64,000 bases of DNA from Candidatus Aminicenantes bacterium (GTDB lineage Bacteria; Acidobacteriota; Aminicenantia; Aminicenantales; UBA8522). A program made the translations under genes and the position numbers. Numbering within the stretch: the stretch's first letter is position 1; the number at the start of each line of letters is the position of its first letter. The notes under the pieces are model-generated. The model ran no database searches. It saw nothing but the letters and a program-made list of their open reading frames with translations, and was not told where the DNA came from. Below, piece by piece: positions 23,701-54,506 of this stretch. Location of the stretch: positions 25,494 through 89,493 of the forward strand of contig JBBILQ010000001.1 in NCBI GenBank assembly GCA_037444845.1. The letters run 5' to 3'.

Positions 23701-23741
23701 AGCCGGTTGGGCCGGCCCCCAGTTTAAAAGGAGGACTCAGG

Positions 23742-24404
23742 ATGAAGGAAGAAATGTTGGAAAAAATGGCCAGGGCCATTGTAGACGGGCAAAGAGCAGA
23801 AGCTGAATCCCTGGCCAGAGAAGCCGTTATGAACCGTCTGGACCTTCTTGAGGTCATCGAGAGAGGTTTTGTGCCCGGCATTCAGAAAGTCGGCGAACTA
23901 TGGGAAAAAGGAGACTATTTTCTGCCCGAGCTCATCAGCTCGGCCGAAAGCATGAAAGCCGCCATGGCCGTCATCCAGCCTGAGCTGCGCCGCGCCAAAA
24001 TCGACGCGCCATCCAAAGGAAAAGCAGTCATTGGAACAGTTGAAGGTGACATCCATGACATCGGCAAGAACCTCGTCGCTTCCATGCTCCAGGCCCACGG
24101 GTTTGAGGTCCATGACCTTGGCGCAGATATCAAGTTGGGAAAATTCATCGATAAGGCGCAGGAGACCAGGGCCGACTTTATCTGCCTGTCCGCGCTCCTG
24201 ACGACGACCATGCTCGGCCAGAAAAGGCTCATCGAGATGCTCAAAGCCTCAGGCCTGAGGGAACAGTTCATGGTGCTTGTCGGCGGAGCGCCTGTCACCC
24301 AGAGCTGGGCGGATGATATCGAAGCTGACGGCTACGCCGAGAACGCACTGGCTGCTGTCAGTCTTGCCGTCCGGCTGATGGAAAGGAAGCGGGCAAAAAA
24401 ATAA
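23742..24404 (+). CDS. Cobalamin-binding corrinoid protein (methyltransferase cognate, MtxC-like)
   Basis: 220 aa; B12-binding DxHxxG motif (GDIHDIGKN), N-terminal helical cap; typical size of MtmC/MtbC/MttC/MtgC. Confidence 0.85.
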   Translation: MKEEMLEKMARAIVDGQRAEAESLAREAVMNRLDLLEVIERGFVPGIQKVGELWEKGDYFLPELISSAESMKAAMAVIQPELRRAKIDAPSKGKAVIGTVEGDIHDIGKNLVASMLQAHGFEVHDLGADIKLGKFIDKAQETRADFICLSALLTTTMLGQKRLIEMLKASGLREQFMVLVGGAPVTQSWADDIEADGYAENALAAVSLAVRLMERKRAKK

Positions 24405-24419
24405 AGCAAGGGGAAAGCC

Positions 24420-28661: not shown

Positions 28662-28668
28662 AAACGGC

Positions 28669-39557: not shown

Positions 39558-40049
39558 TCAAGGTTTCATTTTACCAAGACGAAATTCGGCGGGAAACCGC
39601 TCTTCGAGAATCTCCTGCCACGCTCTCCGCCGCGGAAAAAAGATGAATTCCAGGACAAGAGAGACGAACAGGAGATAATAGAAATTCCTGCTTGACCCGG
39701 TCAGGAGAAAGAGGACGAAGCCGAGCAATGCCGGGATTTCAGCCACGACAGCCGTGATCACAGCCGCCCGGCTGAGCCTGAGGGTTCTTTCCTCGGGGCG
39801 GTCGCCAGATATTCCCTTCATCAAGCTCCGGTTGAGAATCCTCGTAAGAAGGATAGCGACAATGGCGAGGCCGTAAAAAATAAACACCAACAGGCGGGCG
39901 TGCGAGGGCCTGGATAGGCCTGAGAAAAAGCCCATCCGCGACTTCACTAATTCGACGATAAGGGCGTAGAGGAAAATGCCGGCGATGATAGCGCCGCAAA
40001 CCAGCGTTGTCGTCCGGAAAACCTTCTTCCAATCGGCCACGTCCACCAT
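39558..40049 (-). CDS. Hypothetical small membrane protein (4 predicted TM)
   Basis: ORF with hydrophobic segments; same strand and directly upstream of beta-CASP RNase gene; no recognisable motifs. Confidence 0.4.
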   Translation of the reverse strand: MVDVADWKKVFRTTTLVCGAIIAGIFLYALIVELVKSRMGFFSGLSRPSHARLLVFIFYGLAIVAILLTRILNRSLMKGISGDRPEERTLRLSRAAVITAVVAEIPALLGFVLFLLTGSSRNFYYLLFVSLVLEFIFFPRRRAWQEILEERFPAEFRLGKMKP

Positions 40050-40131: not shown

Positions 40132-40515
40132 TTATCTGTTCTCCTCCTCGATGACATCGTGGAGTTGCTTAAGAAAATCGGGGGTCGCCGAGGTGACGCG
40201 GTTCCAGTTCGGTATCAGCGGGGAGTACAGGGGGTTTTCCAGGAATTCGCGGCCGGCGATCTGGATGGCCTGGGTAAAGGCCTCGACCGTGATGGTCTCC
40301 TGGTGGCGGTCGAAAAAGAGACCGTTCAGGGCAGCGTCGTCATTGTACCGCTTGATCGTGTCCTGGGCAGTGCGAAGATAATTGATGACGAGGGTGTTGA
40401 GGATGCTCTCGCTGACGCAGGCGCCCTCGATGGCCAGGTTGCGAAAAACGGCCTTGGCAATATCGATGGATATCTTCTTCAGGCTATAGAATTGCATCAT
40501 CTTCAACGATGCCAT
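40132..40515 (-). CDS. Hypothetical protein
   Basis: 127-aa ORF, no recognisable motif; positioned at head of the minus-strand unit ending in the beta-CASP RNase. Confidence 0.35.
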   Translation of the reverse strand: MASLKMMQFYSLKKISIDIAKAVFRNLAIEGACVSESILNTLVINYLRTAQDTIKRYNDDAALNGLFFDRHQETITVEAFTQAIQIAGREFLENPLYSPLIPNWNRVTSATPDFLKQLHDVIEEENR

Positions 40516-40571
40516 TTAAATGTTTAAGCCAGCTGACCCCTTAGCGCTCGTTATGCTATAATCGTGAAACT

Positions 40572-42020
40572 ATGAAAATCGCGATGTTGAGCTCGGAGGT
40601 TGTGCCTTATGCCAAGACCGGCGGTCTGGCGGATGTCACGGGGGCATTACCCAAGTACCTGAGCGAAGCAGGAGCGGAGGTGCGGGTTTTCCTGCCGCTC
40701 TACAGAGAGACGAAAAAAAAGAACCTGCCCCTCGAGAAGGTGGTCGATGGCCTCAAGCTCGAATGGGCCGGAAAAACCGAGCTGTACTCAATTTGGGAAC
40801 ACCGCCAGAATTCCCTCTCTTTTCTCTTTGTCGAGAAGGACGCCTATTTCGACCGGGATTATCTTTATGGAAACACGCAAGGAGATTATCCTGATAACGG
40901 CGAGCGATTCGCCTTTTTCTGCCGGGCGGCGCTCGAGACTCTGAAAGTCCTGGGGTTTCAACCCGATATCCTCCACAGCCACGACTGGCAGGCGGCTATG
41001 ACGCTGGCCTATCATAAGCTTGGATATGCGGATGACACGTTTTTTTCTTCCGCTCGTTCTCTCTTTACCATTCACAACCTGGCCTACCAGGGAATTTTCG
41101 AACGGGAGGTGCTCGGCAGGATCGGACTTCCTGATGCCCTCTTCAATATGGAGGACCTCGAGTTTTATGGCAAAGTAAACTTCCTCAAGGCGGGTGTCTT
41201 ATACTCCACAGCCGTTAGCACGGTCAGCCCCCGTTATAGCCAGGAAATCCAGACGCCCGAGTTCGGGCATCGCTTGGACGGGTTGCTGAGAAAACGCCAC
41301 TACGACCTCTACGGTATCCTGAACGGTGTCGATTATTCCGAATGGAATCCAGCCACCGACAGGTTCATCGCCAGGAATTTTGACGCCGACAGCCTGACCG
41401 GAAAGGAAGAATGCAAGAAAGATCTGCTTCAATCTTTTTCTCTGCCGCCTGAAGCTGAGAAGGAGCCGGTCGTGGGTATGGTGTCGCGTCTGGCGGGCCA
41501 AAAGGGCTTTGACCTTCTCACACAGGCCGTCGAGGAGATTTTCCGAAGCGGAGCCAATCTCATCATCCTGGGGACGGGCGAGGAGGTATACCAGCACGCG
41601 CTCCAGGCGGTCCAGAAGCAGCATCCCCGGCGCTTTGGCCTGAAGATTGCTTTTGATGAGGGTCTGGCTCATAAAGTCTATGCCGGGAGCGATATCTTCC
41701 TCATCCCTTCCCGTTATGAGCCCTGCGGCCTGACCCAGATGTACAGCCTTCGCTACGGGACGGTGCCGGTGGTCCGGGCGACCGGCGGCCTGGAGGACAC
41801 CATCCGGGAATTCAACCCGGAAAAACAGGCCGGCAATGGGTTCAAGTTTGTTGAGTACGAGAAGACCGCCCTCGTCAACGCTGTCCGGAGGGCTTTGGCT
41901 GTTTACCAGGATAAGGAAAAATGGCAGACTCTCATGAAGAACGCCATGGCATGCGATTTTTCCTGGGAGCGGTCAGCCCGCGAGTATATCCGCCTTTACA
42001 AACGCCTTTTATCACCCTGA
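40572..42020 (+). CDS. glgA: Glycogen (starch) synthase, ADP-glucose type
   Basis: N-terminal E-x7-KTGGLADV motif (SSEVVPYAKTGGLADV), GT5 architecture, 482 aa. Confidence 0.9.
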   Translation: MKIAMLSSEVVPYAKTGGLADVTGALPKYLSEAGAEVRVFLPLYRETKKKNLPLEKVVDGLKLEWAGKTELYSIWEHRQNSLSFLFVEKDAYFDRDYLYGNTQGDYPDNGERFAFFCRAALETLKVLGFQPDILHSHDWQAAMTLAYHKLGYADDTFFSSARSLFTIHNLAYQGIFEREVLGRIGLPDALFNMEDLEFYGKVNFLKAGVLYSTAVSTVSPRYSQEIQTPEFGHRLDGLLRKRHYDLYGILNGVDYSEWNPATDRFIARNFDADSLTGKEECKKDLLQSFSLPPEAEKEPVVGMVSRLAGQKGFDLLTQAVEEIFRSGANLIILGTGEEVYQHALQAVQKQHPRRFGLKIAFDEGLAHKVYAGSDIFLIPSRYEPCGLTQMYSLRYGTVPVVRATGGLEDTIREFNPEKQAGNGFKFVEYEKTALVNAVRRALAVYQDKEKWQTLMKNAMACDFSWERSAREYIRLYKRLLSP

Positions 42021-42055: not shown

Positions 42056-43081
42056 CTAACTTGAGCTTCGCATGAAACCGGCTGCGGTCTCTGGCGGCAC
42101 GGGGTTGATGTAAAAACCCGTTCCCCACTCGAACCCCGCCACCCGTGTAAGAACAGGGATAATCTCGAGGTGCCAGTGGAAGCTCTCTCTCAGGTTGGCC
42201 CAACCTTCGTGAGGCAAATTGGGATTGGGCGCCTGGTGGATGTAAAAATTAAAAGGGGGGTCGGAGAGGATGACCTTGAGTTTCCCCAGGGTCGTCTTTA
42301 TCGTCCTGGCCAGCCAGAGGGATTCGACTTTGGTCAGGCACGTGTACCAGGCGGAGTGCCGCAGCGGATAGATTCGCATTTCAAAGGGGAAGCGTGGGGC
42401 AAAAGGAGCCATGACGCAAAAATGTTCGTTGCGCAGGATGAGCCGCTCGCCCTCGCTCGTCTCATCGCGGATGATACGGCAGATGATGCATTCGCCGTGC
42501 TGCCGATGAAGCCTCTCGCAACCATAAAGCTCCTCGTTGACCTTCTTGGGGATGATGGGAGTGGCCACAATCTGGGAATGCGGATGGCTGAGGGATGCGC
42601 CGGCCTCCCGTCCTTTGTTCTTGAAAACATGGACATACTTGTACTGGAACTCCTTCTCGATACTGAGCACGCGCTTCTTATAGGTCTCCAGCACTTGTTG
42701 GATGTGGTAAAGGGGCAGGTCGGGAAGCTCCCTGTCGTGGTCGGGAGTTTCGATGACGACCTCGTGCACGCCCACGCCGTCCATCCAGCGGAATATCCCG
42801 TCCTCATGCTGGACAGGGGGCATACCCCTTGTCAGAGCCGGGAATTTGTTGGGAACGACCCGAACCAGCCACCCCGGTTTATTAGGCCGCGTTCCGTTTT
42901 TCCGCAGCGCGTAGACCTCGCGGGGGGTTTTGGATTCGTTACCCTCGCAGAAAGGGCAAAAGCCTGCCGGTTCCTTTTTTTTCTCCGTCGGAGCGGGCCT
43001 GAAGTCATCCGGCCTTTTGCCCCTTTCGGCGGCGATGATGACCCAGCGGCCGCTGATGATATCCTTCCGTAACTGGGACAT
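42056..43081 (-). CDS. GalT-like HIT-family hexose-1-phosphate nucleotidyltransferase (galactose-1-P uridylyltransferase or ADP-glucose phosphorylase-type)
   Basis: Zinc-knuckle CPFCEGNE and active-site HPHSQ motif; last gene of the alpha-glucan operon. Confidence 0.8.
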   Translation of the reverse strand: MSQLRKDIISGRWVIIAAERGKRPDDFRPAPTEKKKEPAGFCPFCEGNESKTPREVYALRKNGTRPNKPGWLVRVVPNKFPALTRGMPPVQHEDGIFRWMDGVGVHEVVIETPDHDRELPDLPLYHIQQVLETYKKRVLSIEKEFQYKYVHVFKNKGREAGASLSHPHSQIVATPIIPKKVNEELYGCERLHRQHGECIICRIIRDETSEGERLILRNEHFCVMAPFAPRFPFEMRIYPLRHSAWYTCLTKVESLWLARTIKTTLGKLKVILSDPPFNFYIHQAPNPNLPHEGWANLRESFHWHLEIIPVLTRVAGFEWGTGFYINPVPPETAAGFMRSSS

Positions 43082-43084
43082 TTT

Positions 43085-43444
43085 CTACCCGATGAGCTCC
43101 TTGATTTTAGATTTGAGCTCGTCTAGGGAGGCGGATTTGACGATGTACGCGTCTGCCGCCCAGGTCATGAAATCGTGCTTGTAGCTCTGGTAGGCGGTAT
43201 TGATGATGATGGGGATGTCCTTGCGGAGAGCCATGATCTGGGTGATGAGCTCGATCCCGTTCTTGACCGGCATCCGGATGTCCGTGACGATGAGGTCAAA
43301 CGGCTGCTTATTGATCTGCTGCACGGCCGTTTCGGCGTCTGAGACGGCGATCACTTTGTACCCCTCCCGTGTCAGCTCTTCGCGGTAGAGCAGACAGAGG
43401 TTTTTTTCGTCCTCGACGATGAGGAGTTTTTTCTTTTTTTTCAT
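43085..43444 (-). CDS. Single-domain response regulator (CheY-like receiver only)
   Basis: 119 aa; receiver motifs LLIVEDE, phospho-acceptor D in DLIVTDIRMP, conserved T/K; 4-nt overlap with upstream kinase gene. Confidence 0.85.
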   Translation of the reverse strand: MKKKKKLLIVEDEKNLCLLYREELTREGYKVIAVSDAETAVQQINKQPFDLIVTDIRMPVKNGIELITQIMALRKDIPIIINTAYQSYKHDFMTWAADAYIVKSASLDELKSKIKELIG

Positions 43445-44781
43445 CCCCCTCCCCCTGTTCTAAAATACAGTTTAAAAGTTGTCCCCTGCCCTTCCTGGCT
43501 TTCAACGACAATCTTTCCGTCGCAGGCCTCCATGAATCTCTTGACATAGGCTAGGCCGAGCCCGATTCCCTTTTCCTTGGTCGAGACAAAGGTCTCGAAT
43601 ATTTTTCCTTTGACCGATTCCGGAATGCCCTGGCCATCGTCCTCGACCGAGATGACCACCCAGTCGTTATTTTCACGGTAGGCACGGAGGAGGACATGTC
43701 CCCCGTCCTCGAGGGCATCCAGGGCGTTTTCTACGACATTCCGCAACGCCTCTCCTAAGTGGATCGGGTCGCAAAGAATGCTGACCAGGCCGTCTTCGAT
43801 TTCTGTCTTCAAAACGACCTTTCGGCCCACGATGAGCGGCTTGACGGCGTCTTTGACCAGCTTGAAGGTCTCCCTGATGTTGACTGAGACCTTCTCCTTG
43901 ATATCGACGCGGAAGAAGCGCGTCAGGCGGAGCATGATTCGCTCCAGGCGCGCGATTTCCTTCCGGATGATCTTGAAATTCCTCTTCTTTTTCCGCTCGG
44001 TTGTCCGCGGATCGAGCAACTGGTCGATGAACCCGCCCATCGTCACGAGGGGGGTGCGAAGCTGGTGGGTGACGAACATGGCCATCTCTCCGAACGCCGC
44101 CCGCCTCCTCATTTCTACAGCCCTTCTCTGGAGCTTGGTCACGTAGATGTAGTTTCCCGCCGCCAGCCCGCAGATGCTCGCCAGCTCGATGTCCTGCCTC
44201 TCTATGGGGCGGCGAGTGATGGCGTTGTCGAGGATGATTTCGCCGAATATTTCCTCCTGGGAGAGCAAAGGAATGCAGAGAAACTCATCGGTTCCGATGA
44301 CATCCAGAAAATGCCTGTCCACCAGAGGCTCTCTGGTTGCTTCCCGGACCAGGATTATTTCTCTGGATGAAGCGGCCAATGCGGGAATGACGGGATTCCT
44401 CGAATGAAGAGGAAAGGAGATTTTTTTTACATTCTGAACGAGCGGGTTGGTCTCGCTGGCGAGGAGGGCCCGGTTGTGCTCGATGATCTCGGTATACCCG
44501 ACCCCGGGGGTGGAGAGGACTTCCCAGATGTCAGCGGCTTCTTCCGGAGAGGCGGGTCCGAGCCAGAACTCACCTTTCAAGCTGGCATTATCGGCGAGGA
44601 AAAGCATCGCCCGGTTGAAGCCCAGGCCGGGACCCGCAGTCAGCGCCGTCAGGATGACGAGCAAGTTGTCCATGAGCGAAAAAGGCTGGAAAAAGCTCTG
44701 GGCGAGGATAGAGAATATCTGAAGCTCTTTCGAGACACCGCGGGGAAGTTCGTGAAGGAAAGGGTGATACTTTTCGATCAT
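43441..44781 (-). CDS. GAF-domain sensor histidine kinase (cytoplasmic)
   Basis: Two GAF-like N-terminal regions, HisKA H-box (VTHQLRTPL), HATPase_c G-boxes (GIGLGLAYVKRF...GQGTTFKLYF); no TM segments. Confidence 0.85.
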   Translation of the reverse strand: MIEKYHPFLHELPRGVSKELQIFSILAQSFFQPFSLMDNLLVILTALTAGPGLGFNRAMLFLADNASLKGEFWLGPASPEEAADIWEVLSTPGVGYTEIIEHNRALLASETNPLVQNVKKISFPLHSRNPVIPALAASSREIILVREATREPLVDRHFLDVIGTDEFLCIPLLSQEEIFGEIILDNAITRRPIERQDIELASICGLAAGNYIYVTKLQRRAVEMRRRAAFGEMAMFVTHQLRTPLVTMGGFIDQLLDPRTTERKKKRNFKIIRKEIARLERIMLRLTRFFRVDIKEKVSVNIRETFKLVKDAVKPLIVGRKVVLKTEIEDGLVSILCDPIHLGEALRNVVENALDALEDGGHVLLRAYRENNDWVVISVEDDGQGIPESVKGKIFETFVSTKEKGIGLGLAYVKRFMEACDGKIVVESQEGQGTTFKLYFRTGGGG

Positions 44782-45959
44782 TCAAGTCTCCAGTTTTTGG
44801 GCACGACGCGGATGTCCCCCTGGCTGATGAAGTGCTTCCTGTCCTCTTTGATGTCGTGTCCGATCGCGAAACGGTCAGGAATCCGGGAGAATTTATCGAC
44901 GATGGCCCGGCGCAGCCGGGCTCCTTTTCCGACCTGAACTCCTTCAAAGAGGATGGAATCCTGGACGCGGGCTCGGGGGGCGATTGTTACACCGGGCGAG
45001 ATGATTGAATTCTGAACCGTTCCGCCGTCAAAGCGACAGCCTGCGCTGATGATGGACTTTTTGATATCGCTCCGCTGGACGAGGGTTGGGCCATGCTGGG
45101 CTTTGTAGGTCCTGATCGGCCAGGAACTATCGTCCAGAGAAAAGGGCGGCCTGGAAGAGAGAAAGGCCATGTTGGCCTTCCAGTAGGCGCCGATCGTACC
45201 GATGTCTTCCCAGTATCCATCAAAGAGATAGCCGAAGACCCGGGCTTTGTGAATCAGCCGCGGGATGATGTCTCTTCCAAAGTCGTGGCTGCTGGAACGG
45301 TCCTTGGCGTCCTGGATGAGCGCTTTGATCAGGATGGGCGTCCGAAAAAGATAGACGCCCATGGAAATAAGAGATGATTTTTTATCCCATGGTAAGAAAG
45401 GAGGTTGAGGGGGTTTTTCCAGGAATTCATTGATTCTATGGTCATTGTCCACGGCCACGACGCCGAAACGGCTGGCCTCAGCAAGGGGAACAACCTTGGC
45501 CAGGATCACGGCATCCGCCTTTTTTTCAATGTAGAATTTGATGATTTTTCGGTAATCGGCACGATAAACATGGTCGCCTGAAAGGACCAGAATGACCTCG
45601 GGATTTTCCTGCTGGATGGTGTAGATATTCTGGAAGACGGCGTCCGCCGTTCCCTCGTACCAGTGTTCGCTTACCCTTCCTTGGGCGGGCAGCGAGATAA
45701 TATAGCCTCCGCTCTCCGCATGAAAAATGTTCCAGCCGTAAAGAATATGCCTTTCCAGGGATAAGGATTTATACTGGGTCAGCAGGGCAATCTTGCGCAG
45801 CCCCGAGTTCAGAGAATTGGAAAGGCTGAAATCGATGATCCGGTAGCTGCCCAGGAAGGGGACGGATGGCTTGGCCCGGTGCTTGGTCAAAGGGTAGAGC
45901 CTCTCCCCTTTTCCTCCACAGAGGATCATGACCAGAATTTTTTCAGATAAGGTCACCAT
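44778..45959 (-). CDS. glgC: Glucose-1-phosphate adenylyltransferase
   Basis: GGKGERLYPLTKHRAKPSVPFLGSYRIIDF nucleotidyltransferase motif, left-handed beta-helix C-terminus. Confidence 0.9.
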   Translation of the reverse strand: MVTLSEKILVMILCGGKGERLYPLTKHRAKPSVPFLGSYRIIDFSLSNSLNSGLRKIALLTQYKSLSLERHILYGWNIFHAESGGYIISLPAQGRVSEHWYEGTADAVFQNIYTIQQENPEVILVLSGDHVYRADYRKIIKFYIEKKADAVILAKVVPLAEASRFGVVAVDNDHRINEFLEKPPQPPFLPWDKKSSLISMGVYLFRTPILIKALIQDAKDRSSSHDFGRDIIPRLIHKARVFGYLFDGYWEDIGTIGAYWKANMAFLSSRPPFSLDDSSWPIRTYKAQHGPTLVQRSDIKKSIISAGCRFDGGTVQNSIISPGVTIAPRARVQDSILFEGVQVGKGARLRRAIVDKFSRIPDRFAIGHDIKEDRKHFISQGDIRVVPKNWRLE

Positions 45960-47595
45960 CGGGCGTCACGATCGCAGCGAATACGCTATCCTCTTCTTCC
46001 CAGGTAGCCAGATGCTTCTGTTCGTCCTGGCTGAGCGGGTCATTCCTTTTCAGCCAATCGACGAGCGTTTTAGCTCTTTGGAAGTGCTCAGCGGCCCTGT
46101 TTTCTGCGTAATCGCGGGCTGTCCAGGTTGAAATGAGAAAAGGCCAGTCCGAGCTCTCCAGGAGAAACTTTTCACGGATGAATTGCCTGTACAGCTCAGG
46201 TTTTTTTTTGGCCAGAGAAAGCGGCAGCCGCTGGTCTTCCTCCTCCACCCAATAGATTTTTTCCCATATCCAGGCCGTGTCATCGTTGAACCAGATCCAG
46301 TGGAATCCCCCTGTTCCCCACGAGCCTTCGGGGAGGCTGACGAGGACATGAGGGCGGAGCGCCTCTAAGCAATCGGTTGCCTTGTGAGGTTTCACTTCCC
46401 TCTCGTAAAATTTTTTTATCACTAAATAAAGCCATTCTGGGCCCTCGAACCACCAGTGACCAAAAAGCTCTGTATCATAGAGCGCGGCGACCGCGCCCTC
46501 GTCCTGTCCGTTCAGGCTGGCCGCAACAGAATCCACGAAATGCGCGGCATTTTCGTCTAGCCTCTCTTGAATCCTGCCCGGGTCGTAGGGTTGTTTATCG
46601 CCGAGGTCGGCGTCGCTTGAAGTAATCCGCCAGTAGCGCATGCCGCCCGGGAAATGTTTTTTGTGAAATTCAAGATACCAGCCGTCGCCGGGGTAGCCTG
46701 ACTTTCCGCTCCAAACCTGCACTCCCGATTTATCGTCCCGGACAAAAAACGGGACTCGCGAAGGATCAGCCAGGTAAGGAAAGTAGGGCGAGCCAGCAGC
46801 TTGTTTTCCGGTCTCGTAGCCCTTCCTGAATTTCTCCCAGAGAAGCTTGAGAGCCGGAAAGCGGTCGAGGTAGACGCCCCTGACCTCTCCGCCGCTGAGA
46901 AGGTGAGTGTCAACAAAGAAATAGCCCAACCCTTCTTCCCCCAAGATTTCGTCAACCCCCAGCCTGGGCACAGAACCGCCGCTCCCGATAGGCCGTTTCC
47001 AGGCGTACCGCGGCCGGTAGGCGCATTCAGGGAGCCAGAATCCTTGCGGGTCACGGCCGAAGTGCTGGCGGTAGACCGACTTTCCCTGGCGAACCTGCCG
47101 CCGGAGGCTTTCGTCCCGGGAAAGGAGGGGGAAGTAGGCGTGCGTGGCCGCTGAGGTCAGGACCTCAATCAGGCCTTCATCCTGCAGTTTCCGGAACCCT
47201 CCCAGGATGTCCTCCTTCCAGGTGTTGGTAAAAGCATCGCAGACCTTTTGATACCATGATTCCCAGTAAAAGGTCAGCGAGAGCAGAGTCCTGTTTCCTG
47301 TTTTCTCGAAATACGCCCTGTCCTGGCGAGCGATATCGATTTTCATCTGGAGATAATTTTTAAACCCTGAAGCAAAGCTTCTGCTTTTAAGCTGCTCCAT
47401 CAGCACGGGCGTGAAGGAGATGTTGACGTTGGGAGCAAAACCTTCATCTTTGAGGCGGTAGAAAACGTCTAACAGCGGCAGGTAGCTCTCTGCCGCCGCC
47501 TCGTGGAGCCAGTCCACCCCGTGAGGCCAATTCCCGTGAGCCAGGACATAGGGAATGTGACTGTGGAGGACTAAAGAGAAAAATTTAGACGCCAC
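45943..47595 (-). CDS. GH57-family 1,4-alpha-glucan branching enzyme-like
   Basis: N-terminal LVLHSHIPYV motif typical of GH57 branching enzymes; ~550 aa. Confidence 0.8.
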   Translation of the reverse strand: MASKFFSLVLHSHIPYVLAHGNWPHGVDWLHEAAAESYLPLLDVFYRLKDEGFAPNVNISFTPVLMEQLKSRSFASGFKNYLQMKIDIARQDRAYFEKTGNRTLLSLTFYWESWYQKVCDAFTNTWKEDILGGFRKLQDEGLIEVLTSAATHAYFPLLSRDESLRRQVRQGKSVYRQHFGRDPQGFWLPECAYRPRYAWKRPIGSGGSVPRLGVDEILGEEGLGYFFVDTHLLSGGEVRGVYLDRFPALKLLWEKFRKGYETGKQAAGSPYFPYLADPSRVPFFVRDDKSGVQVWSGKSGYPGDGWYLEFHKKHFPGGMRYWRITSSDADLGDKQPYDPGRIQERLDENAAHFVDSVAASLNGQDEGAVAALYDTELFGHWWFEGPEWLYLVIKKFYEREVKPHKATDCLEALRPHVLVSLPEGSWGTGGFHWIWFNDDTAWIWEKIYWVEEEDQRLPLSLAKKKPELYRQFIREKFLLESSDWPFLISTWTARDYAENRAAEHFQRAKTLVDWLKRNDPLSQDEQKHLATWEEEDSVFAAIVTPDGDLI

Positions 47596-49750
47596 TTTTT
47601 GCTCTCAAGATGACGTTGAAAGAAAAGCTTTGCTTCTGGTCCAGGATGATATGCCAATGCGGCAGGAAACACATGCCCTGATGAATTATATCATAACCCT
47701 CTTCGGATTGGGAGAGCGTCTGAAGCGGAAAATGCCAAATCTCTGGCGCAGGGGCAAATTCGAGCTCGAGCCTTCCGCCGAGAACGATCAGTTTTCCCGT
47801 TTTTTCCTCCCACTCATCGGCCAGCAGATAAAGATTCCATTCCGAGCCGAAAAGCAAAGAGAGTTCCATGGAGGAATCGGTGCTGACCACACAGGTGATG
47901 CTGACTTGCCCATCTCGGGGCTCAATTTCTTTTTTGACGAGGATGGGCGCCCTCTCTCCATCAACCCAGACATGTCCGTGCCTCTTGAGGAGGAGACGGC
48001 CCTGTCTAAGCTCTGGTTCGTATTCCTGGTTAACGAAATCTCCCTGTTCGCCATAGGTAATCCGGCGAAAGTCCTCCAGGCTCGTGCGGGGATGAAGAAA
48101 ATGGTCAAGGAGTGAAAACCGCGGATGCCAGTCATAACGGAGAAGAGCTTCGGCTTCGAGAGGAATCTTTTTGGCCAGCTCGTGGATACTTTTCCCCTCT
48201 CCGGGCTCCTCCTGTGCGCGGTGGTAGGATTCTTCCCTGCGGGAGAGGACATTCGAAAGGTTTCGGGAAAGCGGCCTGAAGTCGATCTCGACCAGGCTGC
48301 CTCCGAACGACGGCTTGGCCAGCAAGCCGAAGAAGGCATCGCGGTAAAAAAACTCCTCCCTGCCGTCGAGGTCATAGTCTGTTTTTTCCCAGCCCGGCCG
48401 GAGTCTTGCTTTCTTTTCCGCCTCTAAAAGATGGAAATAGGCCGCTTGCCGGAGATGAGGAAGGTAGAGACCACCGAAAACGCCATGCCAGTAGGCGTCG
48501 TTGCACTGGCCTCGATAAAGTTCCCGTGCCGCTTCCGGGATAGAGGGTCTCTGTTGTCCGACCGCTCGCGAAAGGAAGAGCATGCGCTTGTGGAGGTGGT
48601 TGCTTTCAGGGTACTTGACGAAAAATTCCCTGAAGAAGCCCCCCCTGAGAAGCCTTCGGGATTCGGGCGAGCTTTCTTTCTTGAGTTCCTTGAGCCGGCG
48701 GTAGTCTTCAGGTTCGAGAATCCACTCCATCATCTCCTCATAGGAAGCGGGCGGGATGTAAACCAGGCTGAAGGATGGGCCTGTATCCAGGTATTCCGAA
48801 TAGGTCATGGTCTGGATTGATTCTCTTTCAAGATATTCAAGAAAAGTCCTCAGCCACCTCTCCTCATAAACCCACTGCCTTGTGCCCGGCCAGAGGCCAA
48901 ACTTCTCGCCATCATCGGCGAGGATGGCCAGGCCGCCTCCAGCCTCGATTTCTTTGAAATAGGGGTTGATGTCATTGATCTGGCGGAAGGGAATGAGGTA
49001 GCGGAGTTTTTTGTCGATAGGAAAGAGGACCAAGGAATTTCCTTCCTCTTCTGTCATGTACGGACAGTGGATATCCCTTACTCCAGCATAATGAAAATGT
49101 TCTTCATCGAGAAGCGTGTACTCGATTCCAGCCAGAGCTAGGGTCTTGGCCAGCTGAGGTTCCCAGACTCTTTCAGTCAGCCAAGCGCCGCGCGGCCTGA
49201 CGCCGAAGTTCTCCTCCAGGAATTGGCGCATCAACCGGAGCTGGCCCTGCCGGTCTTCTTCAGGAATGACGGATAGGACGGGTTCGTAGAACCCGCCCCC
49301 TAAAAGCTCGGCCTGGCCCCGGCAGGCCATCTCTTTGACCAAGTCCCAGCATGATTTTTCATGGGATTCCATGTATTCCCACAGCGGCCCAGAGATGTGA
49401 AGGGCAAATTTGATACCCGGGTGTTCGGCCATTTCCTCGAGGAAAGGCCGGTAACAGTCGCGGAAAGCCTTCTTGAAGACGGCGGGAAAATTCCCCACCG
49501 GTTGATGGTTGTGAACGCCGAAAAGAAAAATTAAATCACTCACCGCGGGAATCCTTTCCTCCTTGCCGTTGAGCTCTTCGCAGGTAACCATCGAACAGGG
49601 CCGCGAATTCGGCCACTCCGGCCGCGTCGTCTTCACCAAACCACCAGAACCAGTCCGAACCCTCGGCCACATAAATCTCTTCCGAGGGACCGCATTCTTG
49701 CCTGGCCAGGGAAAGCCTTTCCCAGGCCGCGTTCTTGGCCGGATGGCCAA
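47585..49750 (-). CDS. GH57-family alpha-amylase/4-alpha-glucanotransferase-like (true start probably downstream of ORF-track Met, near ~49591 or a non-ATG start)
   Basis: GH57 region I LFGVHNHQPVGNF; long C-terminal domain; ORF-track N-terminus overlaps upstream gene by >200 nt so start is uncertain. Confidence 0.75.
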   Translation of the reverse strand: MAIRPRTRPGKGFPWPGKNAVPRKRFMWPRVRTGSGGLVKTTRPEWPNSRPCSMVTCEELNGKEERIPAVSDLIFLFGVHNHQPVGNFPAVFKKAFRDCYRPFLEEMAEHPGIKFALHISGPLWEYMESHEKSCWDLVKEMACRGQAELLGGGFYEPVLSVIPEEDRQGQLRLMRQFLEENFGVRPRGAWLTERVWEPQLAKTLALAGIEYTLLDEEHFHYAGVRDIHCPYMTEEEGNSLVLFPIDKKLRYLIPFRQINDINPYFKEIEAGGGLAILADDGEKFGLWPGTRQWVYEERWLRTFLEYLERESIQTMTYSEYLDTGPSFSLVYIPPASYEEMMEWILEPEDYRRLKELKKESSPESRRLLRGGFFREFFVKYPESNHLHKRMLFLSRAVGQQRPSIPEAARELYRGQCNDAYWHGVFGGLYLPHLRQAAYFHLLEAEKKARLRPGWEKTDYDLDGREEFFYRDAFFGLLAKPSFGGSLVEIDFRPLSRNLSNVLSRREESYHRAQEEPGEGKSIHELAKKIPLEAEALLRYDWHPRFSLLDHFLHPRTSLEDFRRITYGEQGDFVNQEYEPELRQGRLLLKRHGHVWVDGERAPILVKKEIEPRDGQVSITCVVSTDSSMELSLLFGSEWNLYLLADEWEEKTGKLIVLGGRLELEFAPAPEIWHFPLQTLSQSEEGYDIIHQGMCFLPHWHIILDQKQSFSFNVILRAKSGV

Positions 49751-50882
49751 CCCACCGGGAAAAACTCCCCAGCCAGGTGCCGGGGACCAACTCGACCTCT
49801 TCCCGCGGAGGATTGAGTTCCAAATAATCCTTAAGGAGGATGGGCGTTAGGCCGTCTTTTGCCATGAGCCGGCCGTAGAGCTCACGGAGGAAAGAAACCC
49901 CGTTATCCCTGTAGCCAGCCCAGGGATTTTCTCCGTCCAGGGCAATCACACAGATGCCCTGGTTTGCCTGGGCTCTCATCCGCTCGTCCAGCTTGCTCTC
50001 AAAATGGCTGACCGCGTTTTTTGCATCCCAGCGCTGGTATTCGAAACTGATGAGGTCCGAGAGCTCCCGGTCGCGGAAAAAAATGGCCAAGTCCTGGCAG
50101 GAGTAAGGTTTTGTCAGCAAAGCTCTGTCTGGAGCCTTTTTCAGGCTTTGCCACAGGAGGTTTTCGTCTGTGACGGCGTAAGAAAAGCCTTCCCTGGCGA
50201 CCGCCCTGGCCACGTCCAGGCTTATGCCGCCTTCTGAGGGCCAGAACCCCCTCGCGCAGCGGCTGAAGACCTCATTGAAGTACTTTCTGCCTTTCGAGAT
50301 CTGCGCTTTCCCATCCTCCGGGTGTTTGAAAGGAAGAGCCGGCATGATTGGCTCGTTTCCGACACCAAGGTCAAAAAGAAGAGGAAGGAGGGGGTGATAA
50401 TACGCCGATGTCGTGAGTTCGGCTTTGTCCTCCAGCCAGAGCCTTTTATAGAAGGGTATCACTTTCTTGTGGACATCTTTTTGAAGGCTGAGCAGGGAAT
50501 CTTTCTCTTGTCCCGCCTGAATGACGGGCGAAAAGATCGACCGAAGAACTCGAAGTTGAAGTTCCTTGTTATCCGTTTCTTTTTCTCCCCGAGGCATGAA
50601 TCCGGAAAGCAAGACTACATCAGAAGCCGCCAACTCCTGCGGGTTTTTTTCCAAAGCCTCCTTGAGAGAATCACGAGCTCCTCCCCGGCTGTAATCCTCA
50701 GCCTGCTCGAGGAGGCAGGGAACGAGGTTAAAAACACACGGAAATCCTGATTCCTCCGCTAAGTAGGCCATCTGATAATAGTTCTTAGTCAGGTGGTAGT
50801 TCACATAAGGAAGGAGGTATCGGCTGTTCCCTGGGTCCCTGTAAATGGGTTGGTGATGGTGCCAGAGGATGGATAAATACAT
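49536..50882 (-). CDS. GH57-like glycoside hydrolase family protein (third paralog)
   Basis: N-terminal ILWHHHQPIYRD (GH57 HQP signature); heads the minus-strand alpha-glucan operon. Confidence 0.65.
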   Translation of the reverse strand: MYLSILWHHHQPIYRDPGNSRYLLPYVNYHLTKNYYQMAYLAEESGFPCVFNLVPCLLEQAEDYSRGGARDSLKEALEKNPQELAASDVVLLSGFMPRGEKETDNKELQLRVLRSIFSPVIQAGQEKDSLLSLQKDVHKKVIPFYKRLWLEDKAELTTSAYYHPLLPLLFDLGVGNEPIMPALPFKHPEDGKAQISKGRKYFNEVFSRCARGFWPSEGGISLDVARAVAREGFSYAVTDENLLWQSLKKAPDRALLTKPYSCQDLAIFFRDRELSDLISFEYQRWDAKNAVSHFESKLDERMRAQANQGICVIALDGENPWAGYRDNGVSFLRELYGRLMAKDGLTPILLKDYLELNPPREEVELVPGTWLGSFSRWVGHPAKNAAWERLSLARQECGPSEEIYVAEGSDWFWWFGEDDAAGVAEFAALFDGYLRRAQRQGGKDSRGE

Positions 50883-51021
50883 CGAGAGTTTTTCTCGCTT
50901 TCAGGCATCGGCCTTTGGGGAAGACTTGCTTTCCCAGACCTTGAGGATGTCAGCTCTGTCGATTTCTTCGATCCGCTTGGCCGTGTACGCGCGAAGGGCT
51001 GTGACGTAATTCATCAACTCA

Positions 51022-51189
51022 GGTTTCTTCTTTTCTTCTTTTCTCCGCATTTTTCCAGTAATCCAGGCAGCTCGTATCGCAGAAATGCAGGACATAATCC
51101 TGCCCTTCGGCGTGCAGAGCAGCGGCCTTAGGGATCATTTTCTGACAAACATGGCAGGCGATTTTCTCGCTTTTTCCTTTTTTTTTCAT
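51022..51189 (-). CDS. Small YHS/TRASH-type metal-binding zinc-ribbon protein (55 aa, not in ORF track)
   Basis: MKKKGKSEKIACHVCQKMIPKAAALHAEGQDYVLHFCDTSCLDYWKNAEKRRKEET: C-x2-C...C-x3-C pattern of YHS/TRASH domains; own consensus promoter and AAAGGA RBS. Confidence 0.45.
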
Positions 51190-51227: not shown

Positions 51228-51256
51228 ATTATAGTGAAGGTTTCCACGCAAAGCAA
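51228..51256 (-). promoter_or_regulatory. Sigma70-like promoter for the small YHS gene: TTGCTT -17 nt- TATAAT
   Basis: On minus strand -35 TTGCTT (51256..51251), 17-nt spacer, -10 TATAAT (51233..51228), ~35 nt upstream of ATG 51189. Confidence 0.45.
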
Positions 51257-51374: not shown

Positions 51375-52496
51375 TCAACGATGGAGAAAGCTCCGCTCGC
51401 ATTCTGTCTCGTCGGGGCGGCGCGTGACGATCATGGCCAGTCCCAGCACATTGGCCCTGTCAATGACCTCCTGATCACGGACGGAACCAAGGGGATAGAT
51501 GATCGCTGTGATGCCGTTCGCGGCGGCGAGTTCCACGACATCGGGGAAAGGCATGAAGGCATCCGAGGCCAGGACGCAGTTTTCCGGGCCGTAGCCGCGC
51601 CGCGAAAACCGGATGGCGCAATCCGCGGCGTCGATCCGGCTGCGCTGTCCAGACCCGATGCCATGAACCTTGTCCTTCTGCCCGATGACAACCGCGTTGG
51701 AGCGGGTGAAACAGGCGACGATCCAGTTGAACACCGCTGCGTCAAGCTCGTCTGCTGTGGGCCGCCGGTCGGAGACGACATCGACGTCCTGGATGAACCG
51801 GATCCTGGAATCAAACCTTTTCTGGACGAGCAGGCCGCCGGCAACCCGCTTGAATTCCAGACCGTTATCTGTCGCCTCCCTATCCACGGGGCTTCCCATT
51901 CTGACAACACGCAGGGTCTTCCTTGCGGCCAATACCTCTAAGGCTTCTGGCGCGTAATCGGGCGCGTAGACGACCTCGATATTTCTCTGGCTTTCCACCA
52001 AAAGCCGGGCGAGGGGATCCGTAACACGGCCACTGAAGACATCGACACTCCCGAAATTGGAGAGAGGGTCGCTACCCCAGGCTTTGTCGAATGCCTCTTC
52101 GACTGTCTCCGCGACAGCCACTCCAGCGGGCATCTCGTGCTTGATCAACGCGCAGCTCGTTTGGTGAGGCCTTATTTCAGCCAGTTTCCGGACGATTCTT
52201 TGCCCCAGGTCCATGTCACCCATGTTGATATAGCTCAGCCCTTTGCTCCCTTCCTGCAGGACGCTCAGGGTAGCCATGTTCGGTCCAGTCGCGCCCTCTT
52301 CTGTATAGAAAGCGGCTGGATACCCGGGATTCTCGCCGTAGCGCATGGAAATTTTCTTGCGGAATTCCTGGCCGCCGAACGCGAGCTTTTCCGGAAAATC
52401 CTCCTCGACTTTCCTGGAATACTGAAGCCGGGCTGACTTGTCTATTTTTTCCATGGGCTTTACTTTACCTCTCGTTTTTATTGATGATGTGAACAT
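51375..52496 (-). CDS. purH: AICAR transformylase-domain-only PurH (no MGS-like IMP cyclohydrolase domain); start may be at Met 52454
   Basis: C-terminal ASDAFMPFPD motif and AICARFT-domain similarity throughout; ~360 aa instead of ~510 aa bifunctional PurH; directly follows purO. Confidence 0.8.
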   Translation of the reverse strand: MFTSSIKTRGKVKPMEKIDKSARLQYSRKVEEDFPEKLAFGGQEFRKKISMRYGENPGYPAAFYTEEGATGPNMATLSVLQEGSKGLSYINMGDMDLGQRIVRKLAEIRPHQTSCALIKHEMPAGVAVAETVEEAFDKAWGSDPLSNFGSVDVFSGRVTDPLARLLVESQRNIEVVYAPDYAPEALEVLAARKTLRVVRMGSPVDREATDNGLEFKRVAGGLLVQKRFDSRIRFIQDVDVVSDRRPTADELDAAVFNWIVACFTRSNAVVIGQKDKVHGIGSGQRSRIDAADCAIRFSRRGYGPENCVLASDAFMPFPDVVELAAANGITAIIYPLGSVRDQEVIDRANVLGLAMIVTRRPDETECERSFLHR

Positions 52497-53196
52497 CGAA
52501 CTTCAGATAATCTCGGCTTGACGCGTAGACACAGGCCACGGCGACCCGGTAGTCTCTGTCAGGGTCTTTGGGTTTGAGGGCTGAGTAGATGGCCTCGGCC
52601 ATGGTGGCCGCGTCCATCGCCTTGATTTCCACGGCCAGGGGATCGCCAAAGAACGAAGGGAGGGGTGTTGCCTCTTTGCCGGTATAAGTGGTGATTATCC
52701 TCCCTTTTCCAGGCTCAAGACCATAAGGAAAGAACAGTTTTTCTGATGTGCCATTGCCGGCTCTCTTGATGATACTCAAACAAGCCCGTCCGCTGGGGCA
52801 AGCGCAGCCGCTGATCCTCGGGGTAAAATGAGGAGCATCTGGCTCATAGGACCAGTTGCTTAGGGCTTGTCTCAAGACATCCTCGGGGTCTTTTCTTTTC
52901 CCGAAAGCTCTTACGATTTCTTCTGTATGCCGTCCGTTGGAGATGGCAATGCCTTGGCCGATAGCAATGGCCCTGTAAATGAGAAGCTCAGCCTGATCCT
53001 TTTTTATGGCTTCTTCGTCTGAAGGTTCGGTCCAGATGTTGCCGGCTTCGAGCTTCAGCCTCCTGGCCTGGCTGGAGGGCGACCTGCCGGTGATGGCGTA
53101 TCCAGCAATAACGTGCTCGGCAGTCCTGTCGAGGCCGATCAAGATAACCCGGCCGGGATAAGTCATGCCCTCCAGCACGGCCAGAGATTTGGTCAT
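52465..53196 (-). CDS. purO: Archaeal-type IMP cyclohydrolase PurO
   Basis: ~240 aa with PurO-family similarity (N-terminal GRVILIG..AGYAITGRS region); paired with IMPCH-less PurH. Confidence 0.7.
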   Translation of the reverse strand: MTKSLAVLEGMTYPGRVILIGLDRTAEHVIAGYAITGRSPSSQARRLKLEAGNIWTEPSDEEAIKKDQAELLIYRAIAIGQGIAISNGRHTEEIVRAFGKRKDPEDVLRQALSNWSYEPDAPHFTPRISGCACPSGRACLSIIKRAGNGTSEKLFFPYGLEPGKGRIITTYTGKEATPLPSFFGDPLAVEIKAMDAATMAEAIYSALKPKDPDRDYRVAVACVYASSRDYLKFDVHIINKNER

Positions 53197-53284
53197 CTCA
53201 TTTCCTCTTCATGGACGCTCCATTGATAGCATAGAGAGGGGGTGAAGTCAAAGCTGCGCGCCTGGGGTCGCCGGGAGACGGGGC

Positions 53285-54073
53285 TTGAGCCATCCGCGGG
53301 AATGCGGTAGAATGACGGTTCTGGAAACGAGGAGAGCAATGGAAAAGAAAATAGCGCCGCCCGAGATCGCTTACAAGAACATGGAGTTTCTCGAGTCCGA
53401 GGAGGCCCGGACGATCAGGATTCTGAGTGAAATCCTCGAACCGATGTACCGGCTGTCCAAATACAGAGTCCATACGACTGTGCTCTTCCTCGGCTCCTCC
53501 CGCGTCGAGCCTCAAAAGAAGACTTCTCCCCTGCTGAAATACTACTGGGATGCGGAAGAGCTGGCTTTTCGGCTGGCCACTTGGGCCATCAAGTTGAAGC
53601 CCAAGGGCAAGAATTTCGTCATCTGCACGGGCGGCGGACCGGGCATCATGGAGGCTGCCAACCGCGGCGCGTCCAGGGCTGGAGGCAAGTCGATCGGCAT
53701 GAATATTTCGCTCCCCCTGGAGCAGGCTCCTAACCTCTACATTTCTCCCGAGCTCTCGTTCCTTTTCTATTATTTCTTCACTCGCAAGTTCTGGCTGATC
53801 AACAAGGCCAAGGCTGTCGTTGCTTTTCCGGGAGGGTTCGGCACCCTGGATGAGCTGTTTGAGACGTTGACCCTGATCCAGACAGAGAAAATCTCGAAAG
53901 AGGACCTGTTCATCATCCTCTACGGGAAAGAATACTGGCAGAAGGCGATCAATTTCGATGCCCTTATCGACATGGGCACAATCTCGCCGGAAGACGCCAG
54001 GCTTTTCTGTTTTTGCTCGACGCCGCGGGAAGCATTTGCCCTGCTGAGGGCAAGGCTCAGGAAATTCCTGTAG
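53285..54073 (+). CDS. LOG-family protein (cytokinin riboside 5'-monophosphate phosphoribohydrolase / nucleotide 5'-monophosphate nucleosidase-like)
   Basis: GGGPGIMEA and PGGFGTLDELFE motifs characteristic of LOG/TIGR00730 Rossmann proteins. Confidence 0.8.
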   Translation: MSHPRECGRMTVLETRRAMEKKIAPPEIAYKNMEFLESEEARTIRILSEILEPMYRLSKYRVHTTVLFLGSSRVEPQKKTSPLLKYYWDAEELAFRLATWAIKLKPKGKNFVICTGGGPGIMEAANRGASRAGGKSIGMNISLPLEQAPNLYISPELSFLFYYFFTRKFWLINKAKAVVAFPGGFGTLDELFETLTLIQTEKISKEDLFIILYGKEYWQKAINFDALIDMGTISPEDARLFCFCSTPREAFALLRARLRKFL

Positions 54074-54506
54074 CCGGACCTGACTGCGAGCGTTTTCTTT
54101 TCTGGTAGAAAGCCAAGAAAACAAGAACTCCGGCTGCTGCGCCTAACGCGTCAGCCAGGAGGTCAAAAAGCTCAACCTCTCGTCCCGGCACAAAATATTG
54201 GTGAAACTCATCCAGGGCACCAAGACCGATCGTGACAAAGAAGGAGAGGATGGTTTTCATCCTGAGAGACAGGGTTGAGGCCTTAAAAAAGCCCAGGGAC
54301 AGGAGAAAAGCCAGGATGGCAAACTCGATGAAATGGGCAGCTTTATCCACAAGGTGGATATCAATGGGAATGTCGTAGTCCTTTGAGGAGAGGAAAAAAA
54401 TCAGCGAATAGTAGATCGCGGCGGGCAGGAAGGCAGCGTATTTTCTCATCGGCTCCGTGACAGAAGACGTATTGTAATGAAAAGCTCCTTGCGAGTCCAG
54501 AATCAT
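54057..54506 (-). CDS. VanZ-like family membrane protein
   Basis: 149 aa, 4 TM, conserved LDEFHQYFVPGR motif of VanZ family. Confidence 0.7.
   Translation of the reverse strand: MILDSQGAFHYNTSSVTEPMRKYAAFLPAAIYYSLIFFLSSKDYDIPIDIHLVDKAAHFIEFAILAFLLSLGFFKASTLSLRMKTILSFFVTIGLGALDEFHQYFVPGREVELFDLLADALGAAAGVLVFLAFYQKRKRSQSGPATGIS

Follow-up and report, generated by a model that had tools for sequence, protein, structure and literature searches.

A 64,000-nucleotide stretch of DNA from a Candidatus Aminicenantes bacterium (contig JBBILQ010000001.1), analysed here over its full length and referred to as the window, carries on its minus strand a cluster of genes for glycogen metabolism in which a soluble sensor histidine kinase (HK) and a single-domain response regulator (RR) are embedded. 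The cluster is interpreted as a GH57-type glycogen operon with a dedicated cytoplasmic two-component switch that would act post-translationally at the ADP-glucose node, a reading to which a probability of roughly 0.55 is attached. Its parts do not stand equally firm. There is next to no doubt that the operon and its conserved two-component system are real, and it is very probable that this system is functionally dedicated to glycogen and ADP-glucose metabolism. That the output of the RR is direct enzyme binding is put forward tentatively, at somewhat less than even odds.

Seven tightly packed minus-strand open reading frames (ORFs) occupy positions 42056 to 50882, as delineated by an ORF list combined with Pfam and NCBIfam searches. 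They are listed in gene order, followed by the neighbouring glgA gene:

49536-50882, minus strand: GH57 paralog 1 (GH57 no. 1), 448 aa; Pfam GH57 domain alone (PF03065, E 1.3e-47)
47585-49546, minus strand: GH57 paralog 2 (GH57 no. 2), 653 aa; GH57, AmyA-A_glucT_m and AmyA-gluTrfs_C domains (PF03065, E 2e-52)
45943-47595, minus strand: GH57 paralog 3 (GH57 no. 3), 550 aa; GH57 and BE_C domains (PF03065, E 4e-36)
44778-45959, minus strand: glgC, 393 aa; TIGR02091, 438.6 bits
43441-44781, minus strand: HK, a soluble GAF-HisKA-HATPase_c sensor histidine kinase by Pfam, 446 aa
43085-43444, minus strand: RR, a single-domain response regulator, 119 aa; Pfam Response_reg only
42056-43081, minus strand: GalT-like HIT-family nucleotidyltransferase, 341 aa; GalP_UDP_transf
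40572-42020, plus strand: glgA, 482 aa; TIGR02095, 589.6 bits (cutoff 328.45)

The successive junctions in the seven-gene set are overlaps of 11, 11, 17, 4 and 4 nt, the last two being ATGA, and the GalT-like gene follows after a spacer of 3 nt; the set is probably co-translated. A preliminary description of this DNA had named the same seven genes, with which the domain content agrees, and had given overlaps of 4-17 nt throughout, which holds for the first five junctions but not for the last. For GH57 no. 2, the mechanical ORF list offered a TTG start at 49750, which would overlap GH57 no. 1 by 215 nt and did not fit; the GTG at 49546, with an AAGGAGG Shine-Dalgarno sequence ahead of it, was taken instead. 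The glgA gene, an ADP-glucose-type glycogen synthase according to TIGR02095, is convergent with the operon as described before, 35 nt from the stop of the GalT-like gene. The absence of a GH13 branching enzyme and of GlgP, also noted earlier, was upheld across the 64-kb window, where a Pfam search of 46 substantial ORFs found no GlgP, GH13, GlgX or phosphoglucomutase. An Rfam scan of the whole window found no riboswitch or other RNA family.

Relatives were collected by scanning one genome per GTDB species with the sensor peptide patterns FSI[LI]AQSFF and [PSH]G[LV]GFNRAM. The counts for Aminicenantes cover the best 80 of 207 relatives, with kinase identities of 46-83%, and the window proteins were mapped onto these loci. 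The RR gene directly follows the HK gene in 75 of the 77 loci long enough to show it, the GalT-like gene directly follows the RR gene in 73 of 74, and glgC directly precedes the HK gene in 72 of 79. The seven exceptions to the last arrangement comprise five loci with a branching-enzyme gene abutting the HK gene and two with fragmented glgC matches. The ATGA overlap of the glgC stop with the HK start recurs in 64 of 70 related loci, and glgA is found downstream in 65 of 80, strand not being part of this tally. All three GH57 genes, and with them the full layout of the window, are present in only 13 of the 58 fully visible loci; the commonest layout (27/58) is without GH57 no. 1, a gene present in only 30 of the 80 loci. 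The conserved core is glgC-HK-RR-GalT-like and not the GH57 trio. Across the 80 loci the RR has the highest median identity of the cluster (76%), the enzymes lie at 58-66% and the HK at 53%. The named HK relatives are all Candidatus Aminicenantes or Aminicenantales metagenome-assembled genomes (MAGs; NCBI phylum Candidatus Aminicenantota), and an identical kinase (100%) is encoded on contig CAZJPZ010000001.1 of assembly GCA_964548295.1.

The sensor portion of the HK alone (aa 1-225) was also searched against 1.84 billion cluster representatives. Only seven representatives reached E<1e-30, and these make up the Aminicenantes orthologue group; a further 533 at E<1e-10, with approximately 30-40% identity, occur in kinases of many architectures. 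Nine distant kinases served as outgroups. What decided their choice was a long contig, an architecture that matched or differed, or the presence of a taxon name; their gene neighbours played no part. Their sensors share approximately 27-42% identity with the window sensor, and three of them carry a taxon label. In all nine loci a receiver-only RR of the same family, 117-131 aa long, is encoded immediately downstream of the HK, with glycogen genes alongside. The gene orders are:

L085, no source label: glgA, GH57, GH57, glgC, HK, RR
L086, no source label: HK, RR, glgC
L090, no source label: HK, RR, glgC, with a divergent phosphofructokinase gene (PFK)
L087, no source label: glgP, HK, RR, glgC, glgP
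L088, no source label: GH57, GalT-like gene, glgA, HK, RR
L089, no source label: GH57, PFK, GalT-like gene, glgA, HK, RR, glgC
L171, Nitrospinae MAG: GalT-like gene, glgA, HK, RR, PFK
L172, Nitrospirota MAG: GalT-like gene, glgA, HK, RR
L173, Latescibacteria MAG: HK, RR, glgC

None of these arrangements is without an enzyme of ADP-glucose synthesis, use or probable phosphorolysis. PFK lies near the HK-RR pair in three outgroup loci (L089 4408-5433, L090 3870-5192, L171 10852-11880) and a DUF3417-type glucan phosphorylase in one (L087 6200-7726 and 11034-13205). These neighbours suggest that the module sits at the branch point of glycogen metabolism and glycolysis and not with one fixed enzyme.

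As a control, 80 kinases were used that share only the kinase core and had been caught by the generic motif PFF[TS]TK in a metagenome scan built on an outgroup kinase alignment. No glgC, glgA, GalT-like or GH57 gene was found near any of these 80 kinases, 33 of which are on loci of at least 8 kb, and neither the sensor signature nor the RR signature occurs in any of the 80 control loci. Glycogen linkage in nine of nine outgroups versus none of 33 controls gives a Fisher exact p of approximately 2e-9. The linkage belongs to this sensor and RR family and has survived extensive gene reshuffling. The preliminary description had left room for a recent insertion unique to this genome; the placement is instead syntenic in 80 species-level Aminicenantes genomes and recurs in at least three other phyla, and the layout of the HK and RR genes is neither a chance arrangement nor a recent insertion.

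The HK has no membrane segment. Its GAF-type sensor (aa 1-225, nt 44107-44781) is followed by HisKA and HATPase_c domains, with Pfam scores of 29.9 bits for GAF (cutoff 22.4), 27.7 for HisKA (cutoff 26.9, residues 233-290) and 83.8 for HATPase_c. An AlphaFold2 (AF2) model of aa 1-225, with a predicted local distance difference test score (pLDDT) of 84, shows a GAF fold with a three-helix insertion at approximately residues 79-119. Its Foldseek neighbours are 3TRC, 3CI6, 2ZMF, 3DBA and 8JRC, with E values of approximately 1e-6 to 6e-5 and template modelling scores of approximately 0.75 relative to the targets. A ligand assignment from the fold was dropped, as these structural neighbours are only 11-18% identical. 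The motif TAGxGxGFNRA, a GP pair, W86 and D185-N186 are invariant in the orthologues and the outgroups, which argues for a common ligand. In the same alignments the sensor contains no invariant His or Cys that would point to haem or bilin.

The phospho-acceptor H239 (nt 44065-44067) is kept without exception in 15 orthologues and the outgroups, and the ATP-binding N, G1, F and G2 boxes are fully conserved, with N348, N352, D381, G383, G385, G405, G407 and G409 invariant. The residue after the phospho-acceptor is Q240 (H239-Q240, window 44062-44067, minus strand), and Gln stands at this place in 79 of the 80 Aminicenantes loci. Among the nine outgroup kinases the motif search read HE in eight and gave no reading for L089. 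In the HisKA kinases tested, kinase activity depends on an acidic residue beside the phospho-His (PMC3510030); the window HK has Gln there and not Glu or Asp. The phosphatase residue at His+4 is T243 in the window and Asn in most orthologues. The Aminicenantes HK may have weak kinase activity or lean towards phosphatase action.

The RR matches Response_reg over residues 8-115 of its 119 (E 1.7e-23), and its AF2 model (pLDDT 81) has the canonical (beta-alpha)5 fold. The phospho-acceptor set E11/D12, D55 (nt 43280-43282), T83, Y100 and K103 is located at the ends of beta1, beta3, beta4 and beta5 in the model. D12, D55, Y100 and K103 are invariant across 11 and across 20 family members, and position 83, Thr in the window, is Thr or Ser in the family. 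The signature [ST]AY..Y...F..W..DAY..K[SC] is present in 75 of 80 Aminicenantes loci and in all nine outgroups. The invariant aromatic residues Y85, Y88 and W95 lie on the beta4-alpha4/alpha4 surface, and K-S replaces the usual K-P after beta5. They belong to the alpha4-beta5 face, the usual output surface of receivers. The best 120 RR family members in a collection of 5.8 billion proteins are all 116-133 aa long and include no output domain or enzyme fusion; PF00072 is their only functional domain, apart from a weak overlapping PF23198 annotation in a few. Some family members are labelled stage 0 sporulation protein F by JGI pipelines. Hybrid kinases of the wider GAF family were considered as possible RR fusions and rejected, as their N-terminal receiver differs (KPF, without the aromatic alpha4 signature). 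The RR represents a distinct family of single-domain regulators that stands beside glycogen genes only, in the loci examined. The earlier observation that the receiver has no DNA-binding output thus extends from the window to these 120 members, and the view taken there, that such a receiver would act by protein-protein contact or phosphotransfer, stands.

All three GH57 paralogs reported earlier match PF03065, and domain searches, as suggested at that time, together with searches against solved structures separate them into an amylopullulanase-like enzyme, a 4-alpha-glucanotransferase and a branching enzyme. The closest solved structure to GH57 no. 1 is AaApu from Aquifex aeolicus (E 2.5e-72), in which E256 is the nucleophile and D352 the acid/base (PMC12106739); E217 and D316 of the window protein align with these two residues. 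It is accordingly a short amylopullulanase-like enzyme by similarity and a candidate debranching enzyme or endo-amylase. GH57 no. 2 aligns over residues 5-629 with the Thermococcus litoralis 4-alpha-glucanotransferase 1K1W (E 3.2e-155) and is predicted to have the same activity. Its catalytic motifs, as we read them in the sequence, are presumably WLTERVWEP and DDGEKFG. GH57 no. 3 aligns nearly full length with the branching enzymes 3N8T, 5WU7 and 1UFA from Thermococcus, Pyrococcus and Thermus (E 8e-119 to 3e-110), has a BE_C domain at 59.6 bits, and aligns with the TK1436 branching enzyme in its WLPECAY and YDTELFGHWW segments. Its scores on the NCBIfam branching-enzyme models, 460 and 450 bits, are below the lineage-specific equivalog cutoffs of 1000 and 920, as expected for a protein from a different phylum. 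It is predicted to be a glycogen branching enzyme of the GH57 type.

GlgC exceeds the equivalog cutoff of TIGR02091 (438.6 versus 424.9 bits), contains NTP_transferase and Hexapep_GlmU/LbH_GLGC domains, and matches Escherichia coli GlgC 5L6S with E 1.2e-94. The activator-site residue K39 of the E. coli enzyme aligns with H27 of the window GlgC, with K26 adjacent.

The GalT-like protein has the nucleotidyl-transfer motif and the two-domain fold of class I GalT enzymes in the HIT superfamily; its earlier label needs refinement, as the protein is nearer to an ADP-glucose phosphorylase than to E. coli GalT. The closest solved structure is Arabidopsis At5g18200 (1Z84/2H39; E 1.3e-68, 235 bits, alignment over residues 3-339), and the match to E. 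coli GalT is weaker (E 3.6e-26, 95 bits). The active-site motif SHPHSQ aligns with SHSHSQ of 1Z84, both being of the form HxHxQ. At5g18200 is called an ADP-glucose phosphorylase in bioRxiv 10.64898/2026.09.13.751320. Because the window protein narrowly passes the NCBIfam galT model TIGR00209 (110.7 bits, cutoff 102.1), automated annotation will label it GalT. Pfam scans of the ORFs found neither galK nor galE in the 64-kb window. From the closer similarity to At5g18200, the lack of galK and galE nearby and the constant company of ADP-glucose enzymes, the protein is a probable ADP-glucose phosphorylase, which would catalyse ADP-glucose + Pi <-> glucose-1-P + ADP. A true Leloir GalT role is less likely, with galK and galE not nearby and the ADP-glucose phosphorylase the closer relative. 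That this probable phosphorylase travels with the module suggests that ADP-glucose is controlled by balancing its synthesis against its phosphorolysis.

In the mechanism proposed here, the GAF domain of the soluble HK would sense a metabolite inside the cell as a measure of carbon or energy status, and the HK would set the phosphorylation state of the co-translated 119-aa RR. The phosphorylated RR would bind a co-encoded ADP-glucose enzyme, either GlgC, GlgA or the GalT-like phosphorylase, and this binding would shift the flux between glycogen synthesis and glycolysis or degradation post-translationally. We infer alike what the ligand would be, in which direction control would run and on which protein it would act. 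Several observations weigh against this scheme. The low identity of the GAF structural neighbours does not allow a ligand to be inferred, and with Gln beside the phospho-His, normal signalling from kinase to RR is not assured. The RR is tied to the enzymes by gene adjacency, which cannot tell GlgC from GlgA, from the GalT-like protein or from none of them. Five Aminicenantes loci, plus L002, are without an adjacent glgC and one is without the GalT-like gene, so that no single enzyme is an obligate neighbour. Finally, just three of the nine outgroups carry a taxon label.

The RR could instead be an intermediate in a phosphorelay or a phosphate sink, similar to Spo0F or to a CheY-type sink, with a transcriptional output on the operon or on a wider carbon-storage regulon relayed by an Hpt protein and a DNA-binding regulator encoded elsewhere. 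Such roles are known for single-domain receivers, as the sporulation labels given to some family members recall, and the HK and RR genes lie inside an operon that they might autoregulate; binding of an enzyme by the RR is, for its part, something that we infer. However, annotation places neither an Hpt gene nor a DNA-binding RR near the pair in the annotated Aminicenantes loci. The same goes for eight of the nine outgroups, while L088 has an additional REC-HD-type RR gene approximately 1.6 kb downstream. The adjacency to enzymes is kept across phyla despite changing gene order, and together with the tight coupling to glgC this is more typical of physical partners. The conserved aromatic alpha4 face suggests a conserved partner as well, though that partner could be an Hpt protein. 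An output by phosphorelay or sink is on balance considered rather unlikely. That the pair is simply a passenger, fixed in an ancestral operon and functionally unrelated to glycogen, is strongly disfavoured and would be a great surprise. Shared ancestry could account for the synteny within Aminicenantes alone, where purine genes (purH-like and IMP cyclohydrolase) are likewise syntenic upstream with no obvious functional link, but outside that lineage the pair stays next to glycogen genes in distant relatives from other phyla, in no fewer than six different gene orders, as against none of the 80 controls.

The exchange at position 240 bears on a further explanation, in which the Aminicenantes HK is mainly a ligand-gated phosphatase, and the RR, charged by acetyl phosphate or by another kinase, reports acetyl phosphate or energy overflow. 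The near-fixed Gln in Aminicenantes, set against the Glu of eight outgroups, is what speaks for it. On the other hand, the full conservation of the four nucleotide-binding boxes argues for continued nucleotide use, the published mutants at the acidic position (PMC3510030) were Ala, so Gln may keep partial function, and the charging of the RR by acetyl phosphate is a supposition. Such a mode of action is improbable. Its combination with the proposed enzyme control, namely a glycogen two-component system of several phyla gating the ADP-glucose node, whose Aminicenantes HK was turned by a fixed Glu-to-Gln exchange into a metabolite-gated phosphatase of an acetyl-phosphate-charged RR, is likewise improbable. 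If it were true, fermentative overflow would be coupled directly to glycogen storage with no transcriptional step.

Outside the coding sequences of the cluster and at its borders, the following features were noted:

51228-51256, minus strand: candidate operon promoter TTGCTT-17 nt-TATAAT, read by eye and below the threshold of the scan tool
51019-51189, minus strand: small Cys-rich DUF3330 ORF (CxxC...CxxxC), 56 aa; PF11809, E 3.3e-9
40533-40562, plus strand: promoter-like CTGACC-18-TATAAT with a TG extension ahead of glgA, from a consensus scan

A consensus scan found no convincing minus-strand promoter or terminator inside the cluster, a result that is uninformative as the promoter rules of the phylum are not established. 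Ahead of the first GH57 gene is a gap of 490 nt that holds the DUF3330 ORF, and in 20 Aminicenantes loci a homologue lies directly upstream of that gene; the ORF may be the first gene of the transcription unit. A second ORF in the gap (50901-51050, 49 aa) is doubtful, being conserved, besides the source contig (L003), in only one other species-level locus (L006). Divergent from glgA is a 127-aa ORF (40132-40515, minus strand) that has no Pfam match and is conserved only in the closest relatives, L003-L007. It matches only the C-terminal approximately 115 residues (284-398 of 402) of the methanogen-type glucosyl-3-phosphoglycerate synthase NF040724 (E 7e-24). A 163-aa ORF at 39558-40049 (minus strand), also with no Pfam match, has conserved counterparts (33-75% identity) in 54 Aminicenantes loci, a few kb past glgA.

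Upstream of the cluster, at 51375-53196 (minus strand), are split purine genes, in which the gene for a 373-aa PurH with only the AICAR formyltransferase overlaps one for an archaeal-type IMP cyclohydrolase (annotated in L003 as PF07826). Most Aminicenantes loci have this pair in synteny upstream of the glycogen cluster; in the clade without glgC it is found downstream on the opposite strand. Beyond it, the longest ORF at 53198-54124 (minus strand, 308 aa) has no Pfam match and is probably spurious; the public annotation of the identical contig places a LOG/lysine-decarboxylase-family protein at 53285-54073 on the plus strand. At 21925-25877 (plus strand), a RACo-like corrinoid reductive activase, a B12-binding corrinoid protein and an MttB-family methyltransferase follow in a row and form a non-pyrrolysine MttB-type cassette for methylamine or quaternary-amine demethylation. 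In L089, an MTTB/B12-binding cassette lies approximately 2.4 kb downstream of the glycogen and two-component cluster. Two adjacent paralogs of PMT_2/PMT-family (dolichyl-phosphate-mannose-type) glycosyltransferases, 883 and 759 aa, at 26010-30948 (plus strand) are in a region of lower GC content (0.42-0.48 versus approximately 0.55 elsewhere).

Textbook control of bacterial glycogen synthesis comprises allosteric effectors of GlgC and global regulators. GlgC is known to be controlled allosterically, by fructose 1,6-bisphosphate, AMP and the like, or at the transcriptional and post-transcriptional level, by PhoP and CsrA. If the proposed reading is true, phosphorylation-dependent protein-protein control would be a third layer of control for this storage polymer, and a function would be found for a large family of orphan single-domain RRs and GAF kinases. 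These proteins are carried by uncultured anaerobes that are abundant and by phyla related to nitrifiers (Aminicenantes, Nitrospirota, Nitrospinota and Latescibacterota).

All components of the cluster belong to known families; the novelty lies in the regulatory association and in a distinct family of single-domain regulators, and no new kind of machine is claimed. The glycogen pathway with a GH57-type branching enzyme is already known. The window cluster shares GlgC, GlgA and a GH57 branching enzyme with the GH57-type glycogen sets of Thermus and Thermococcus and with classical glgBXCAP operons, and also encodes a 4-alpha-glucanotransferase and an amylopullulanase-like GH57 enzyme, but differs from them in carrying a two-component pair. 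To our knowledge, no described glycogen operon contains such a pair, and full-text searches of the openly accessible literature found no description of one as a conserved constituent of glycogen gene clusters. The GalT-like protein resembles At5g18200 (1Z84, 2H39), its best solved relative, over the full length and in the conserved active-site motif, and its company of ADP-glucose enzymes fits that activity, whereas its substrate preference is a prediction from similarity and context. The sensor has the same fold as the GAF domains of PtsP (EI-Ntr), cyclic-nucleotide phosphodiesterases and NifA, all of them small-molecule sensors in metabolic signalling proteins; unlike these, to which it is 11-18% identical, it has the three-helix insertion and an invariant motif of its own, and their ligands are not transferable to it. 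The RR likewise shares fold and phospho-acceptor chemistry with CheY, Spo0F, DivK, CpdR and MrrA, but is set apart by its aromatic alpha4 face, AY..Y...F..W, and by K-S in place of K-P. A parallel for the proposed mode of action is the single-domain regulator EpsW of Myxococcus xanthus, which in its phosphorylated form activates the polysaccharide-pathway enzyme EpsZ by direct binding (PMC12802240). In both systems a receiver-only regulator is concerned with a nucleotide-sugar-consuming step of a polysaccharide pathway, and the post-translational contact is the one proposed for the window RR. EpsW, however, acts on a membrane phosphoglycosyl transferase for an exported polysaccharide and is fed by a CheA-type chemosensory kinase (PMC12802240), whereas the window system would serve cytosolic glycogen through a soluble GAF-HisKA kinase.

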